From a virus, in the IMG/VR virus record IMGVR_UViG_3300044856_000343, positions 4,194 to 68,193 of that record: DNA of 64,000 bases. One strand, given 5' to 3'. The notes under the pieces are model-generated. The model was not told the origin of the DNA and ran no database searches. It saw only the letters and a list, made by a program, of their open reading frames with translations. Shown one piece after another: positions 5,175 to 60,800 of this stretch. Within the stretch, counting starts at the first letter, position 1, and every line of letters starts with the position of its first letter. The translations under genes and the position numbers were made by a program.

Positions 5175-5717
5175 TTATTTTTTTTTATTTTTTCCCTGGA
5201 ATTTAGCAGGATTAGAATTATTATTCTGGTGATTATTAGATACATTATTTGTATTCTTATCATCTGATTTTACTTCTTCTGCCTTTTTCTCTTCCACTTG
5301 TCCTGCTGGTTTACTTTCATCCGTAGTATTAGCTACAGGATCAGATTCAGCTTTTTTCTCTTCGTTTACAACAACTGTATCAACAGGTGTTGTTTCTTTT
5401 TTGCCAGGCTCAGGCTGTTTAACTTCCTCATGTTTAGTTACAGTCTGTTGACCTGCAGAAGATTGTGCGATCAAAAATTGTTTGTACTCATCTTCGTTCA
5501 TATGCTTCTCATTATGAAGACGTTCTACATTTGCTGTATTTACACGAGCAATATCAGAACTTGAGAACCGTCTGTAGACGGTTCCCAGTCTGATACATTT
5601 CTTTACATCTTCAAGAGTAAGATATAAACTTTTTGGAGCACGAATTACATCTACAGATTCAAGTCCTTTTATAATTCTCTTAGGATGAACACTGTAAAGA
5701 TAAGATTTTGCTTCCAT
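5175..5717 (-). CDS. Hypothetical protein with low-complexity C-terminus
   Basis: Start moved to MEAKSY (AAAGGAG SD). Confidence 0.8.
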   Translation of the reverse strand: MEAKSYLYSVHPKRIIKGLESVDVIRAPKSLYLTLEDVKKCIRLGTVYRRFSSSDIARVNTANVERLHNEKHMNEDEYKQFLIAQSSAGQQTVTKHEEVKQPEPGKKETTPVDTVVVNEEKKAESDPVANTTDESKPAGQVEEKKAEEVKSDDKNTNNVSNNHQNNNSNPAKFQGKNKKK

Positions 5718-5736
5718 CAAGTTTTCTCCTTTTCTC

Positions 5737-6282
5737 TTATTTATCAATTCCATCGATAGCCATATCAATCAACTCATCATCACCGTAATCATAACTTAAG
5801 TTACTCTCACCAGCATCACCTGAGTTTGCAACGGCATCAATGTCATTGTCGTCCTGCTCTTCATCTGCTCCAGCGATCTCTGCACCTGTAGCATCTTCTA
5901 ATTCAAGAGATTCATACACTGATCTAGCAGCATCTGGACCAATATTATTTACAGATCCATTTACCTGCACATCATTAGGAACTACCTGAGCAGATCCATC
6001 TGGTACGTTTCCAAGAATAGAATCTAATGCTGAGTCAAGATCTCCATTTGCAGATTCATAAGCCATACCAACTACGTGAGTAGATTTACCTTCCACTTCA
6101 TCAGTAGAGTGTTTAATCTTACCTAATCTCTCTCCGCAGTCACAAGTATCAGCAACGTGGTCTTTTCCATCGTTTCCTCTGAATGCATTGCCAACTATAT
6201 GGGTCTTATTACCCTCTACATCAGCTGTGGAATGCTTAACTTTTCCAGACCGTTCGTCTGCATCAGAGGCATCTAAAAAGGG
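5737..6282 (-). CDS. -1 frame extension (181 aa) of the 6273-8609 protein
   Basis: Frame is open from CCC TTT TTA at 6282 to the stop at 5737, bounded upstream by TGA. No ATG or SD before the track's GTG at 6096. Encodes two GK(V/I)KHSTxxVEGxxTH(I/V)VG repeats. Confidence 0.75.
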   Translation of the reverse strand, partial: PFLDASDADERSGKVKHSTADVEGNKTHIVGNAFRGNDGKDHVADTCDCGERLGKIKHSTDEVEGKSTHVVGMAYESANGDLDSALDSILGNVPDGSAQVVPNDVQVNGSVNNIGPDAARSVYESLELEDATGAEIAGADEEQDDNDIDAVANSGDAGESNLSYDYGDDELIDMAIDGIDK

Positions 6283-8609
6283 TCAGCAAAAGCCTCAAGA
6301 GCTGCATCTACAGCCTCGTTTGTTGCATCCTGATCATTGTCATGTTGATTTGCTTTCTTCTTTCCATGAAGAACAATTCCTGTTACACCGATAACTGCTA
6401 AAGCTGCAGCGATAGCACCAGCAATGATCTTAGGCTTATTAGCTTTACCTTCTTTTGCACATTTCTGCGTATAACTATCGATAGCATCTACAATCTTGTT
6501 GATTCCTGGAATTTTTAATGCCTGAGTATGAGCTTTATCTCCAAGTCCTGAAATTTTCTCTTTAATTCCATTCTCAACAAGTACTGACTCGATAATGTCA
6601 TCTAACTCATCATAAGAGTCATAAGACTCATTCTGTGATTGCTGCTTCTCATATTGCTTCTTTGTCATAACATGTCCAACAACAGCTCCTCCACCTAAAG
6701 CGGCTGCGAATGCACTAGCAATTGCTGCTTTTCTTACATTTGGATGTGCCTGCATATATTTGTAAGCAGCTTCTGAAGCAGATTTAACAGCTTTTCTGAT
6801 TTCAGATGGCTTGCATTTTGAAAGTAAGTTCTTATTTGCATCTTCATCAAGTACAAATACATACTCTTCATCAACTGCCTCTACAGACTCATCAACTGAA
6901 TCCATATAATTGTTCTCGTATCCGTAGCATGTTGACTCATCTACAGGAATAACCTCTCCAGCTAATCCAAGTTTAGCACCCTCAAGCTTAGCTACTGGTG
7001 GATAAACTGCAACTGTTAAGCAATCAGCAGCCTCATCATAGTATGTCTCATATGGTGAGTAGTATACTACTGACTCATTTGTCTGCTGGTCATCTTTACC
7101 CTGGGCTTTCTTCTTGTCATATGCTTTCTTAGCAGCAATTCCTGCACCTGTAAGAGCAGCGGCACCTACAGCAGCAGCGGCAATTTTACCTTTCTTATTT
7201 AATAATCTTTTATTCTTTGCATCAAAAACATTGCTTCCATCAGGTAACTGACCAATCTTTTTACCTTGTACAACCTTTTTGGTTGAAAAAGTATCAGCTA
7301 TCTTAGTTCCTAAAGATTTGCCATTTTTAGCTTCTGCAACTAAATAAGATTCCATTGAAATCTCTTCAATATGCTTAGCTCTTTCAGCTGATCTGAACTC
7401 ATCATAAGCCTCTTTAAGAGATCCTGTAAGAACAGTATCTGTATCACAAAGAGCTGCTTCTCCACAAGCAATATCGGCATCACCAATCTGAAGGAAATAA
7501 GCTTCATTCTGAGCTTTTTCTGATTTCTTCTTATTGTGTGCTTTGATGCCTTTAACTGCAGCAACTCCTGCACCTGTAAGAGCAGCGGCACCTAATGCTG
7601 CACCTGCAACTTTACCTTTACTAATAGATCCATCATCTTTAGTAAAAGCTCCTGCAATTTTCTTTCCAGCACCTTTAACTTTCTCTTTAACTCCTTCATC
7701 TACAACTGTAGCGTCATAGAATCCAAAATCAGTAGCTTCCTGTTGAGTATCCTGTGAATTGTTCTGTGCTTTCTTCTTATCAAGATGATGCTTAATAGCA
7801 GCACCTGCTGCTACGGTTGCAGCTGCAGCTCCAGTGCCAATAGCAATCTTTTTACCAAGTCCACTCTTCTTTTTTGCAACTTCTGGTAATTCCTTTGCTC
7901 GTAAAGCTGGTAATTCCTTTGCTCGTAAAGCTGGTAATCCAGATACTGGTCCAGATGCAATTGCCTCATCTAAAGCTTTCTCAAGTACCTTCTCCTCAAG
8001 AGATTCTGTACTTGCTTCAAAAGCCTCATCAATAGCTACAGATCCTTCACATAATGTATTTACTGCTTCATCAACAGCATCATATCCTGTAGCACTTGCA
8101 ATAATGCTCTCTGCAATGCTGTTATCATCATAAAATGAACCCATTGTATAGTCCTCCTTTACGTTATTATTATCATTTTGATCATCATTCTGGCTAATAT
8201 CTCCATCATTTGAAGGTGAGGAGCTATTATTATTCTGGTTCTGATCATCAGATTCTGTAAATAAATCATCCAGATCAAATCCCTCTTCGATAGCCTTCTT
8301 TATACCAGGTGTCACATCATGTGCCTGAGATTCAGCAGACTTACCTTTAAACATTCCTACAGTTCCTACTTCACCACTTACTGGGAGAGAAACATCTTTT
8401 GATCCTTCTGCATCTTTTTCAGAATAAGAAGCATCTCCATCCAACTGATATTCAGATTCAGGATCAGGACCTGTCCAAGGAATTCCAGCTTCATTAACAC
8501 CAGCAACGGCATCAATTAAGCTGTCATCTTCATCGAACATGAGATCAAAATCTAATTCATCCGATGTGCAATTAGCAAATACGGAATCCATATTTTTTGC
8601 TACTTTCAT
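6273..8609 (-). CDS. Modular acidic/basic-hydrophobic protein, probable virion head polyprotein
   Basis: Five Gly/Ala-rich hydrophobic helices, each followed by KK(K) and (Q/T)(N/Q)E(S/A); acidic spacers; late-type promoter at 8676-8687. Confidence 0.8.
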   Translation of the reverse strand: MKVAKNMDSVFANCTSDELDFDLMFDEDDSLIDAVAGVNEAGIPWTGPDPESEYQLDGDASYSEKDAEGSKDVSLPVSGEVGTVGMFKGKSAESQAHDVTPGIKKAIEEGFDLDDLFTESDDQNQNNNSSSPSNDGDISQNDDQNDNNNVKEDYTMGSFYDDNSIAESIIASATGYDAVDEAVNTLCEGSVAIDEAFEASTESLEEKVLEKALDEAIASGPVSGLPALRAKELPALRAKELPEVAKKKSGLGKKIAIGTGAAAATVAAGAAIKHHLDKKKAQNNSQDTQQEATDFGFYDATVVDEGVKEKVKGAGKKIAGAFTKDDGSISKGKVAGAALGAAALTGAGVAAVKGIKAHNKKKSEKAQNEAYFLQIGDADIACGEAALCDTDTVLTGSLKEAYDEFRSAERAKHIEEISMESYLVAEAKNGKSLGTKIADTFSTKKVVQGKKIGQLPDGSNVFDAKNKRLLNKKGKIAAAAVGAAALTGAGIAAKKAYDKKKAQGKDDQQTNESVVYYSPYETYYDEAADCLTVAVYPPVAKLEGAKLGLAGEVIPVDESTCYGYENNYMDSVDESVEAVDEEYVFVLDEDANKNLLSKCKPSEIRKAVKSASEAAYKYMQAHPNVRKAAIASAFAAALGGGAVVGHVMTKKQYEKQQSQNESYDSYDELDDIIESVLVENGIKEKISGLGDKAHTQALKIPGINKIVDAIDSYTQKCAKEGKANKPKIIAGAIAAALAVIGVTGIVLHGKKKANQHDNDQDATNEAVDAALEAFADPF
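6276..6282 (-). other. Candidate -1 ribosomal frameshift site C_CCU_UUU(UAG)
   Basis: Canonical X_XXY_YYZ heptamer in frame, directly before the stop; GAGG 10 nt upstream. Confidence 0.7.
7883..7938. repeat. 24-bp coding tandem repeat (LPALRAKE x2)
   Basis: CTGGTAATTCCTTTGCTCGTAAAG x2 plus a partial copy, in frame within the 778-aa ORF. Confidence 0.9.
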
Positions 8610-8675: not shown

Positions 8676-8687
8676 TACTTTTATGTT
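8676..8687 (-). promoter_or_regulatory. Late-type promoter AACA-N6-TA
   Basis: AACATAAAAGTA upstream of the 778-aa gene. Confidence 0.6.
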
Positions 8688-9898
8688 CATCCTAATGCTT
8701 TTTCAATGTAATATTCTAGACAAAAAATCAACAAAGGAATCATATAAAAAGTCTTAATAGCAGTATTCAAATCTACATTTAAAGTAGATTCTACTTCCTC
8801 TTTTGTAAGATCTTCACCATAGAAATACTTTACAAAAATGTTTTGCCATAAAGGAGCTTCATTTTCTCCATCTTCTATGATCTTATGATCTTGAATTGCA
8901 TATACTAATTCATCTCCAAAAGATGTAGCTGCATATGCAGTAGGAGGTACAATATAATTTGTCTTAAAGTAAGTTTCAAATCTAGAAGAAAATGTAGTTC
9001 CAAATGAAACTATATTTACTGGTATATACCTTCGATTTGATTTTAAGAGCAAATTAATATCTTTCTTTTCAAATGCTCTGAAAAACGAATGATCATATTC
9101 AATCCCAAATGTTTTTCCAGGATCTAATTTATGATCAATATAAACATATGATTCAGATCCATTTGCAAGTATTTTATTACGAATTAAAAATTCTATCATA
9201 TATGGATCATACATTCTCCATTCTGTCATATCCATATAGATATATGTTTGAACTTCTGAGTTATAATATAACTCATTAAAATAATCTTTCAGAGTTACAG
9301 CAATTTGATCCATCTGTTTTGCTACAGCAAGATCTTCACTACGAACAATTTTAACAATATTTGTTCCTTCTCTTTTTTCGATCATTTTATAAGTTGCTAT
9401 AACTTGATCTTGAATCCTAGTATTATCTACATACTCAAGTTTATAACTAATTTTATATGCATTTGATCCATTTTGTAATGTATCTGTCTGTACATCAGTA
9501 ATTATGAATAACCATGTAGAATCTTTTACATAGTTTACTTCGAAATAATCACCTTCTGTAGGAATAATTGTATTTGGTAAAATTACTCCATCTCCAGATA
9601 CTTTATCAGCTTCCAATCCAAACTCTTCAAATTCTGTTTGTAACTCAATACGATCAATTCCATAGATCATAAAGTCTTCAATCTTATTAAATCGAATACT
9701 TGTTTCTGAGCCAATATTATCATAAGAAAGTTTAGATCCTGGATCTAAACTACTAAGAGTTTTATTGATATTATAATAAGTAACAATCGTTGGTTTCTTA
9801 TCACTAAAAGAATAAAACGAGTTGTTTACAAGATCTCCATAGAAAGAAGTTATTTTCTCCACAGTATCATGATATGTGGTTTCCAATATCTTTCCCAT
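8687..9898 (-). CDS. Probable virion structural protein (AR9/phiKZ-like)
   Basis: 403-aa ORF with late-type promoter CACA-N6-TA at 9927-9938; function not resolved. Confidence 0.55.
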   Translation of the reverse strand: MGKILETTYHDTVEKITSFYGDLVNNSFYSFSDKKPTIVTYYNINKTLSSLDPGSKLSYDNIGSETSIRFNKIEDFMIYGIDRIELQTEFEEFGLEADKVSGDGVILPNTIIPTEGDYFEVNYVKDSTWLFIITDVQTDTLQNGSNAYKISYKLEYVDNTRIQDQVIATYKMIEKREGTNIVKIVRSEDLAVAKQMDQIAVTLKDYFNELYYNSEVQTYIYMDMTEWRMYDPYMIEFLIRNKILANGSESYVYIDHKLDPGKTFGIEYDHSFFRAFEKKDINLLLKSNRRYIPVNIVSFGTTFSSRFETYFKTNYIVPPTAYAATSFGDELVYAIQDHKIIEDGENEAPLWQNIFVKYFYGEDLTKEEVESTLNVDLNTAIKTFYMIPLLIFCLEYYIEKALG

Positions 9899-57816: not shown

Positions 57817-60800
57817 ATGATTCTAGTAGATAAAATGAAGAATTTTAAGATCTATAAGACTCAAACTTTTCTTCCTACCGTTACTGGTAATAAGAAAAAA
57901 GGTTCTGCAATCTTATTATTCACACCGAACTATGAATCATCTAAGAAGATTATGGAGAGTAATCTTTTTATCAATAAATTAAGATATTCTTCATATTACT
58001 TAGAAAGAGATATATCGTATTATATTAATGATAATACAATTGAGGAAGTTAACGAGAATGCTATATTTGCTGATCAGGTTGAATTAGATACTTATCTTGA
58101 GATGAGTTCTGCTGAGCGAAATAAATTGCCTGATGAAATGTTTGGTATTCCTTCAAAGAGAAAATATCCTCTTGATACAGAAGCTCATATAAGATCTGCA
58201 ATCAAGTTCTTTAATTATGTAGATCCAGAAGATGAAAAAGAACTTGCTGAGAATATTATCAAAGCTATGAAAAGATTTAATCTTTATGGAAAGATTAAAG
58301 TATCTTCTAAGAATCGTTTCTCTAAATATTACAGAGTAAATGTTTCTGAATCTGTAATTACAGAAAAGAAGAAAATAGCTAGAAGAAATGATGCTGGTGA
58401 ATATGTTCCAGAAACTTGTCCAGTTTGTGGAGCTGAAGTAAAATGCTATCTTAAAGGAGAACCAGTTTGGTTATGCTCTAATGAGAAATGTAATAAATAT
58501 TTTGGGGTTAAAGAATCTGCTATGTCTACAGAGAGATTTCTATCTTCAATTACAGAAGATTTTATCAATACTGGAGATAAAGTATTATTGTTTAACGAAG
58601 CTAAGAAAACTCCAAATGATTCTAGATTAAAGAAGCTTTTATATGCATCTAGAATTAAAACAAGAAAGGAATTACTTCTCATTCTTGATAAAGTAAAGAA
58701 AGATATTCCTTTTATTAAGTTTGCTTTTCCAGAGATGAAGAAATATATGAATAAAAACTTATTCGTTGATCTTTATTATTACAATGCTTTATTCTTTCAG
58801 AATAATACTTGGGTATTAAAGAAAGGATTAAGTCTTTATACAGACTTTATGACTAGATTGATTAATCATCCAAACTTAAAACAGAATGGATATAATTATA
58901 AATCTATTTTTATTCCTATAGCAGATTGGGATATTTATAGAGATGCTAGTGTTTGGAATATTAGAAAATCTATTAATCCAATTTCTTGTATTTATCAGAT
59001 GATGTTTTTAGGACAATTATCTCAATTAAAAAAGATATTTGGAAATAATAATATTATCTTTACAGCAAATGATAAATATTTTAAAGTAAACTTTTCAGAA
59101 ATAGATCCAAAGGATCTTAAGAGGTTAACTGCTAAATTTAAAATCTTTTGTATTAAGATTTGTCATGGAGAAGAATTTGATTCAGAGGATATTGATAGTT
59201 CTGCAGATAATGTAGATTCTCCTGAAGTTATTCGTGCTAAAATTGTAGATAAGATTGAAAAGGCAAAAGGTATTGATCTTACCAAGCAAGTAGAATTAGC
59301 AGCTAAAAAGAATAAAGAAAAGAAAGTTAAAAATCCTATTAATACAACTAATAGCTTAGTTACTAATACTATAGGTGCTGAACCTGAAGTTACTTTACAG
59401 AATAAAGATGTAAAGAAAGCAATTGCAGCTAATAAAGCAAAATCTGATGAAGATTATGAACCAGAAGAAGATCAAGAATCTGATGATTCTCAGAGAGATA
59501 AAGATATTGAAACTCTTGCAGCTGCTATTGCTCAAGCTTCAGATGATAATTCTAATGAAGATGATGCAGAAGATGATATGGATGATGACGAGATCAAACG
59601 TATATTAACTACATTATCTGGAGAAGATGATAAAGTTAATATTTCTGCTGCTAGAGCTGCTCGTATTAACGAACTTGATGAGAAGTTAATGAATAAAGAT
59701 GTAAAAGGGAAATCTGTAAAAGAAATTCTTGAAGACGAATCTAATAAAGAGGAGATTAAAACTACAGTAAATGTATCTTCTCCTAATACAGAAGAATGGT
59801 CTAATCTTACTTATATGAACTTCGATAAGAATTATAATGTGGATAAAGATATTATCAATATCTTTAGACATTTTTCTAAGTGCTCTAGACCTATATCTAT
59901 TAGAGATATTAAGGTTACTGATAATTCTACATCAGAAGATCGTCTTGAATTATATGATGTAGATATGGAAGACTATAGAGGAAAAAGATTTAGAATTAAG
60001 CTGGATATTCCAATTATGGAAGATAATAGATTCTTATTAAGAGGAAGCTATAAATCAGTACAAACTCAGTTCTTTAATATGCCTATTATTAAAACTGATA
60101 TTGATACTTGTCAGCTTATTTCAAACTATAAGAAGATTTTCTTAAAAAGATTTGGATCTACAAAAGGAAAGTCATTACCAATTGTAGGAAGAATTATAAA
60201 AGCTGCTAAGAAATATTCTGCAGCAAAAGGATTTACAAAGAAAATTAAATTCACTACAGGAGATAATACAAAGATTTGTACTAAGTATCAATTACCTATA
60301 GACTATATTGATATAAGTACATTATTCAATACAATTGAAACCAATGATTGGATTGTATATTTCAATCAGGATGAAATTAGAGAAAAGTATACAATAGAAG
60401 ATGGTAAAGGATTCCCATTTGCTTTTAATAAGAAGCTGAATGCAGTAGAATATTTTTCTCCAAAGATTAAAGAATCTTTTGCAAAGATGCTGTATTTGAA
60501 TCTGATTAAATGTGATGAGAAGTTTGGAGAATTCTTTGATAATGCTACAGCACCTTCTGTGTGTACCTATACTAAAGCTAGTATAGTAAATTCTAAAATA
60601 CCACTTATTATTATTTGTGCATATCATGTAGGTCTTACTGATACTATGAATAGAGCTGGTATTAAATACGAAATCATGGATAAACTTACAAAAGAGGTTC
60701 GAAATGATATTGATTTAGATTGGATAAGATTCAAAGATGGATATATTGTATATACTAATACTTATGAATCTAGTTTGTTAATGAATGGTCTTAAAGATTG

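Follow-up and report, generated by a model that had tools for sequence, protein, structure and literature searches.

The dnaX gene of Escherichia coli gives two products with a common N-terminus (tau/gamma) through a -1 ribosomal frameshift at a heptamer of the X_XXY_YYZ type, A_AAA_AAG, which is accompanied by a proven 3' stem-loop and, reportedly, by a Shine-Dalgarno (SD)-like element about 10 nucleotides (nt) upstream of the shift site. In gene 10 of phage T7, the shift site is G_GUU_UUC and a short extension is added to the major capsid protein. This -1 shift, located near the end of a phage open reading frame (ORF), provides a fraction of the molecules with a C-terminal extension (10A/10B; PMC5009743). 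For some bacterial dnaX genes a reversed order has been proposed from sequence, in which the zero-frame stop codon abuts the shift site and shifting yields the longer of the two products (PMC5009743). For the tail assembly chaperones G/GT of double-stranded DNA phages (Xu, Hendrix and Duda 2004, cited in PMC4276943), a -1 shift at a conserved position in a morphogenesis-region gene sets the ratio of the short and long forms. In West Nile virus and Japanese encephalitis virus, the NS1' product depends on the heptamer C_CCU_UUU, which is read by eukaryotic ribosomes and needs a strong 3' pseudoknot. Here we describe a minus-strand gene, ORF1, in a 64,000-nt stretch of the IMG/VR virus record IMGVR_UViG_3300044856_000343 (the window, meaning the whole stretch that was analysed), where a conserved programmed -1 ribosomal frameshift at C_CCU_UUU would extend a protein of 778 amino acids (aa) to 957 aa. 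We assign this reading a probability of roughly 0.85.

The locus resembles E. coli dnaX in its heptamer type, in the SD-like sequence upstream and in two predicted products sharing the N-terminus, and the reversed dnaX genes in the zero-frame stop right after the site; it differs from dnaX in the heptamer itself, in the unrelated protein and in that no 3' stem-loop is supported. As in T7 gene 10, the shift would add a C-terminal extension at the end of a phage ORF, whereas here the extension is a conserved domain of 179 aa on a protein that is not recognisable as a capsid and whose location in the virion is putative. The likeness to the tail chaperones lies in the kind of shift, the morphogenesis-region gene, the conserved position and the short/long ratio; however, the protein family is another one, the gene has a head-tail joining-like gene as its neighbour and does not precede a tape-measure gene, and it is the long form, not the short one, that corresponds to the ancestral single-frame protein. 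The NS1' site has the identical heptamer but is evolutionarily unrelated. The core features of the locus in the window are as follows.

6273..8609, minus strand: ORF1, the zero frame, 778 aa; its 3' end reads GAC CCT TTT TAG and the protein ends ...ADPF
6282..6276, minus strand: slippery heptamer C_CCT_TTT in X_XXY_YYZ phase, the sole stretch open in both the zero and the -1 frame
6275..6273, minus strand: zero-frame stop TAG, abutting the heptamer on its 3' side (TAA in most relatives)
6279..6275, minus strand: five-T run, equal to the plus-strand A5 run 6275-6279
6296..6293, minus strand: SD-like GAGG, 10 nt 5' of the heptamer, a candidate 5' stimulator
6285..6283, minus strand: TGA of the -1 frame just before the heptamer, which closes that frame upstream
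6282..5740, minus strand: extension in the -1 frame, 181 codons, of which codons 1-2 (P, F) overlap ORF1
5739..5737, minus strand: TAA of the -1 frame, the end of the extension

The predicted fused product comprises 778 + 179 = 957 aa. ORF1 is preceded by a strong SD sequence, AAGGAGG; beside its conserved N-terminus (MKVAKNMDSVFANCT..), it includes an acidic low-complexity region and five Lys-flanked Gly/Ala-rich hydrophobic helices. The extension contains two GK.KHST..VEG..TH.VG repeats that flank CDCGER, and an acidic tail that ends ..YDYGDDELIDMAIDGIDK. CCCTTTT is found in one of 29 long ORFs and twice in the 64-kb window, against 6.8 occurrences expected from shuffles; the other copy (59703-59709, minus strand) is opposite a plus-strand ORF, on its non-coding strand. 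Small as the numbers are, they agree with the slippery heptamer being avoided in coding phase. The arrangement of heptamer, stop and -1 frame is judged to exceed chance, and it is kept in relatives.

Conservation of the shift site

A search of 5.8 billion proteins with ORF1 yielded 20 homologue clusters (P0002-P0021), which together comprise 51 sequences and are 43-86% identical to ORF1. All 20 clusters end in ...PF, with varying residues before it (ADPF, RSPF, GNPF, YDPF, SDPF, NNPF), and none of them is a fusion of about 950 aa (0/20). At the DNA level we compared eight split-type loci, each from a different sample: the pattern CCCTTTT + T + TAA/TAG is present in all eight, the -1 frame is open from the heptamer on in each of the seven loci whose contig continues beyond the site, and in the six loci that reach the end of the extension the -1 ORF has 168-183 codons and stops just before the next gene. 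The sequence-only reading, which had first drawn attention to this site, had proposed examining homologues for the heptamer and the frame offset; both are conserved, in eight loci and in 20 clusters down to 43% identity, and the sequence features that it described are all confirmed in the window. In the window, L006 and L011-L013, only the heptamer is shared by the open zero and -1 frames, which pins the shift to it.

The codon before CCT is GAC, AAC or AGC, its third base always being C though the amino acid varies. In this phage, GAC accounts for 6% of Asp codons, AAC for 13% of Asn codons and AGC for 25% of AGY codons; because a rare C-ending codon is kept before CCT, selection appears to act on the full X_XXY_YYZ heptamer and not just on the T run. 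Scans of IMG/VR and JGI with the extension protein or its alignment gave zero relatives. The site pattern with five to seven T had no match in IMG/VR and JGI viral/metagenome contigs, collections that do not hold the contigs compared here and are thus uninformative on fused six-T variants; the search of 5.8 billion proteins would have caught fused forms and gave none.

Predicted mechanism and flanking elements

In the proposed mechanism, a tandem slippage, a ribosome at C_CCU_UUU would have CCU paired with tRNA-Pro in its P site and UUU paired with tRNA-Phe in its A site. Some of the ribosomes would slip one base back to CCC_UUU and go on with UUA GAU GCC (..DPF-LDAS..), with the predicted trans-frame junction peptide ..AFADPFLDASDADER, and would make a 957-aa protein with the conserved C-terminal domain and the acidic tail; unshifted ribosomes would terminate immediately at the adjacent UAG/UAA and release the 778-aa form without that domain. 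Pairing of the upstream GAGG with the anti-SD sequence and the slow-to-decode adjacent stop may raise the efficiency of the shift, which would occur on the ribosome and not at transcription, and the ratio of the two products may matter to the phage. In E. coli, the most efficient -1 motifs include heptamers of the H_HH.U_UU.Y type, to which C_CC.U_UU.U belongs (PMC4066793), and a stop that adjoins a slippery run is what has classically been called a 'shifty stop' (Weiss et al. 1987, as cited in PMC5009743). The central claim of the sequence-only reading, a -1 shift at this heptamer giving 957 aa, is strongly supported by the lack of an indel, the lack of an independent start and the conserved frame break.

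Upstream of the heptamer, GAGG is kept at a distance of 7-10 nt in all four diverged lineages, with GGAGG in two relatives; GAG makes up 31% of Glu codons in this phage, and the aligned place in the non-shifting relative L014 reads GAA GAC. This element may stimulate the shift by pairing with the anti-SD of 16S rRNA, and the host is taken to read SD sequences because the phage genes have strong AAGGAGG ribosome-binding sites. The SD-like element pointed out earlier at 10 nt upstream is present and conserved; its stimulatory role is a putative one. On the 3' side, the candidate elements in the window are the following.

6246..6269, minus strand: candidate 3' elements, namely CCTC at 6269..6266 and two hairpins; the 13-nt block CCTCTGATGCAGA is invariant
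6267..6257, minus strand: hairpin TCTG-ATG-CAGA
6260..6246, minus strand: alternative hairpin CAGAC-GAACG-GTCTG

The invariant GAGG (6293-6296) and CCTC (6266-6269) are complementary and bracket the slippery site (GAGGC / GCCTC in the window). Base pairing between the two is conceivable in free mRNA, though covariation is uninformative here because both are invariant. A consensus fold of the region holds one compensatory pair (C:G to U:A), and a search of Rfam at the site gave chance-level matches only, far under the gathering scores.

Several points weigh against a programmed shift of this kind. The relatives represent only about 4-5 independent lineages, so the codon-bias arguments rest on small numbers. 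The spacing of GAGG is 7 nt, not 10, in one lineage, and retained Glu-Ala/Gly residues could partly account for its conservation. The two downstream hairpins are both present as the sequence-only reading described them, but a role for them is not supported, and they were ruled out as evidence: the 3' fold has an unremarkable z-score of -1.44 (single-sequence fold), L006 has lost the pairing of one stem, and past the shift the enrichment of conserved synonymous sites (7/10 vs 34/83, p = 0.10) is not significant. The long product, moreover, is a predicted one, and an identical junction peptide would result from transcriptional slippage, minority variants being hidden in contigs.

Such slippage would require the phage or host RNA polymerase to add one U in the five-T run, after which normal translation would yield 957 aa; the phage does have its own unusual multisubunit RNA polymerase (phrog_2986, phrog_25005). 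However, the run is just 5 nt long against about 9 nt in documented bacterial cases (PMC5009743), its length is invariant with no relative carrying a lengthened run, and the C before CCT, the phase, the adjacent stop and GAGG, all irrelevant to polymerase slippage, are kept. The majority sequence of the RNA-library contig also has five T, which is a weak argument since minority variants drop out and the library may contain DNA. We consider transcriptional slippage decidedly unlikely.

The programmed ribosomal shift could also be elaborated into a stoichiometry switch in a polyprotein-like precursor, an extended version that we regard as doubtful. All ribosomes would make the five cationic/hydrophobic helix modules and the shifted fraction would add the C-terminal domain with the YDYDDDELID tail, the shift being stimulated without RNA structure by GAGG, the 'shifty' stop and a pull on the nascent chain exerted by the last hydrophobic helix. 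The acidic YDYDDDELID tail is present in all single-frame relatives, and in every lineage 26-44 residues, roughly the span of the ribosome exit tunnel, separate the end of the last hydrophobic helix from the shift site. To our knowledge, nascent-chain-assisted frameshifting has been described only for a eukaryotic virus.

Single-frame relatives and the coding extension

In L003, a 200-kb relative, the syntenic gene is one ORF of 575 aa with the N-terminus of ORF1 and with the C-terminus of the window's extension (..YDYDDDELIDM..). P0022 is likewise a single ORF, of 1299 aa, with the architecture of the predicted fusion; in a BLASTP comparison the trans-frame product aligns with it unbroken across the junction (E = 9e-22), where ..LEAFADPF followed by LDASDADERSGK.. 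in the window corresponds to ..LEDL-DPIADTCDAGERAG.. in P0022. The DNA of P0022 at the junction reads GAT CCT ATT GCT GAT and is without a slippery site. Among 1.84 billion representative proteins, 42 matched a profile built from the extension, and 23 of these were inspected. In all 23 the domain lies inside a single-frame protein of 214-732 aa, usually at the C-terminus and together with the conserved N- and C-terminal motifs, and most of them have DPIxD..D...R.G in frame before the domain, a motif that crosses the shift position uninterrupted in single-frame relatives.

In the tree of a neighbouring protein of 403-406 aa, seven split loci fall on one side of a 98/98 branch and two single-frame loci stand apart, which is consistent with a single origin of the split. 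The split-type loci form two sub-clades with 71-76% identity in the neighbouring protein and a synonymous divergence (dS) of about 0.8-1.6. Judged from these comparisons, the single ORF is the ancestral state and the split has since been retained. The sequence-only reading had named a continuous ORF in relatives as a sign of assembly error or mutation; continuous ORFs do occur in distant relatives, and because those relatives are without the slippery site, they are taken to reflect the ancestral state and not an error in the window.

The ancestral single ORF also leaves room for a fixed inactivating frameshift, or a 'savior indel' tolerated via background slippage, with two products of no selected function, as the split could stem from a 1-nt deletion. 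This explanation appears very improbable, given that two sub-clades, 24-29% apart in the neighbouring protein, have both retained an open extension on which purifying selection acts, and that GAGG, heptamer and stop have likewise been preserved; a one-base insertion would rejoin the ORF, yet none of the 20 clusters has done so.

The body of ORF1 (6320-7960) is highly variable, homologues at 70-86% identity spanning 754-815 aa. In a bovine-gut contig, positions 6618-6835 are replaced by 209 unrelated letters. The single-frame relatives compared (P0022, P0023, P0029) have 0-5 Lys-flanked Gly/Ala-rich helices, located before or after the conserved domain. As far as can be read from these sequences, the family retains both ends and shuffles the middle.

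The extension is 65-99% identical among lineages, exceeding the conservation of the ORF1 body, and the ratio of nonsynonymous to synonymous divergence (dN/dS) over its whole length is 0.15-0.28. In comparisons of the window clade with other lineages, the first 61 codons, which include no ATG, GTG or TTG, have a dN/dS of 0.11-0.17 at a dS of 0.9-1.4, and the other two frames of the same codons have a dN/dS of about 1 or above and 2-11 stops. The first ATG, GTG or TTG of the window's -1 frame is a GTG at codon 63; in L004 and L008 the first start-like codon does not come before column 73. By these measures, the -1 frame is evidently translated from the shift site on and maintained by purifying selection. 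The earlier impression of a real protein holds, with the repeats present and dN/dS low, and the independent downstream start that had been raised as an alternative finds its first candidate only at codon 63, after 61 start-less codons under selection.

Public gene calls place an ORF of 100-119 aa, beginning at an internal ATG or GTG, within the extension and leave 170-207 nt as 'intergenic' (L004:5457-5759, L006:5460-5783, L011:2033-2392, L013:3996-4355; the window equivalent is 5737-6096). The stand-alone database entries P0035 and P0036 begin at profile position 73 and are gene-caller truncations. Such calls and entries would agree with two genes, in which ORF1 just ends at TAG and the downstream frame is read from an internal or non-canonical start. 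We give this arrangement hardly any credence: strong purifying selection acts on the 61-72 codons before the first possible start, a stretch that ranks with the most conserved, the internal starts are without a preceding SD sequence, the -1 frame opens exactly at the heptamer, and the single-frame relatives are continuous through the junction motif. Stop-codon readthrough and an alternative genetic code were rejected, as the extension is in another frame and a further stop ends the zero frame 18 codons past TAG.

The frame break was also followed in four public runs, aligned to 5700-6900 as contigs, a form in which minority variants are hidden. The probable source run, independently re-assembled in Logan, gives a sequence identical to that of the window. 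Three other studies supplied the remaining runs, two of pig-gut DNA and one of a bovine-gut RNA library; their contigs cross 6275-6279 and have 3, 15 and 39 substitutions relative to the window and zero indels. The sequence-only reading had advised inspecting the reads over this A5 run; the contigs from all four runs are without an indel there. An assembly or sequencing error hiding a true six-T single ORF, conceivable for a break in a homopolymer of a metagenome-assembled contig, is refuted by the five T in the re-assembly, in the three other runs and in eight further contigs from other samples and assemblers, where the frame offset is likewise unchanged.

The protein family and its phage

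The window is part of a 70,969-bp IMG/VR virus contig with an estimated completeness of 44% and a guanine-plus-cytosine content of about 30%. The contig carries split multisubunit RNA polymerase genes (phrog_2986, phrog_25005), a primase gene and a GroEL-like gene, and is therefore regarded as a fragment of a jumbo phage of the general phiKZ/AR9 type. Searches of cultured phage records (megablast, tblastn) found zero similar sequences. The upstream neighbour of ORF1 (8687..9898) matches phrog_3013, 'virion structural protein', and PF24214, putative head-tail joining. The next gene (5175-5717, minus strand) has a probable start at ATG 5717 (MEAKSYLYSV..), with AAGGAG before it, which is more likely than the TTG at 5768 given as its start by the ORF tool; its synteny is kept in all relatives, and it has zero known-family matches. 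In L014, the contig of P0022, a GGDEF-domain gene (L014:1-1112, minus strand; PF00990, diguanylate cyclase family) is found directly upstream of the head-tail joining-like gene, which points either to a cyclic di-GMP enzyme borne by the phage or to a prophage or chimeric nature of the contig.

ORF1, the extension and the single-frame relatives have zero matches in Pfam, PHROGs, PDB sequences and the ESM Atlas, and the AlphaFold2 model of the extension has a predicted local distance difference test score (pLDDT) of 36.6. The labels 'virion polyprotein' and 'AR9/phiKZ-type head protein' that the gene had been given are not supported by any match in these collections. A virion role is suggested by a single observation, the adjacency of ORF1 to the putative head-tail joining gene (PF24214 / phrog_3013).

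Both termini are kept in all relatives, so the functional protein of the ancestral type is probably the 957-aa form, and the 778-aa form would be a variant without the C-terminal domain and the acidic tail. Since the shift has been retained for so long, the proportion in which the two forms are made may well be useful. Public gene calls are wrong at this locus across the clade, giving a gene of about 770 aa and a spurious ORF of 100-119 aa, and thereby miss the 957-aa product and 61-72 conserved codons. The type of recoding is known, and what is new for it is the protein family, an uncharacterised one of jumbo phages. The locus adds a well-documented, evolutionarily retained -1 shift to the few outside the tail-chaperone and capsid genes, with an unusual and compact signal that consists of the efficient heptamer C_CCU_UUU, an adjacent stop and an upstream SD-like sequence, with no evident RNA structure. 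Uncultivated jumbo phages of the gut carry this family widely, and the apparent need of one clade for forms with and without the C-terminal domain suggests that this domain acts sub-stoichiometrically.

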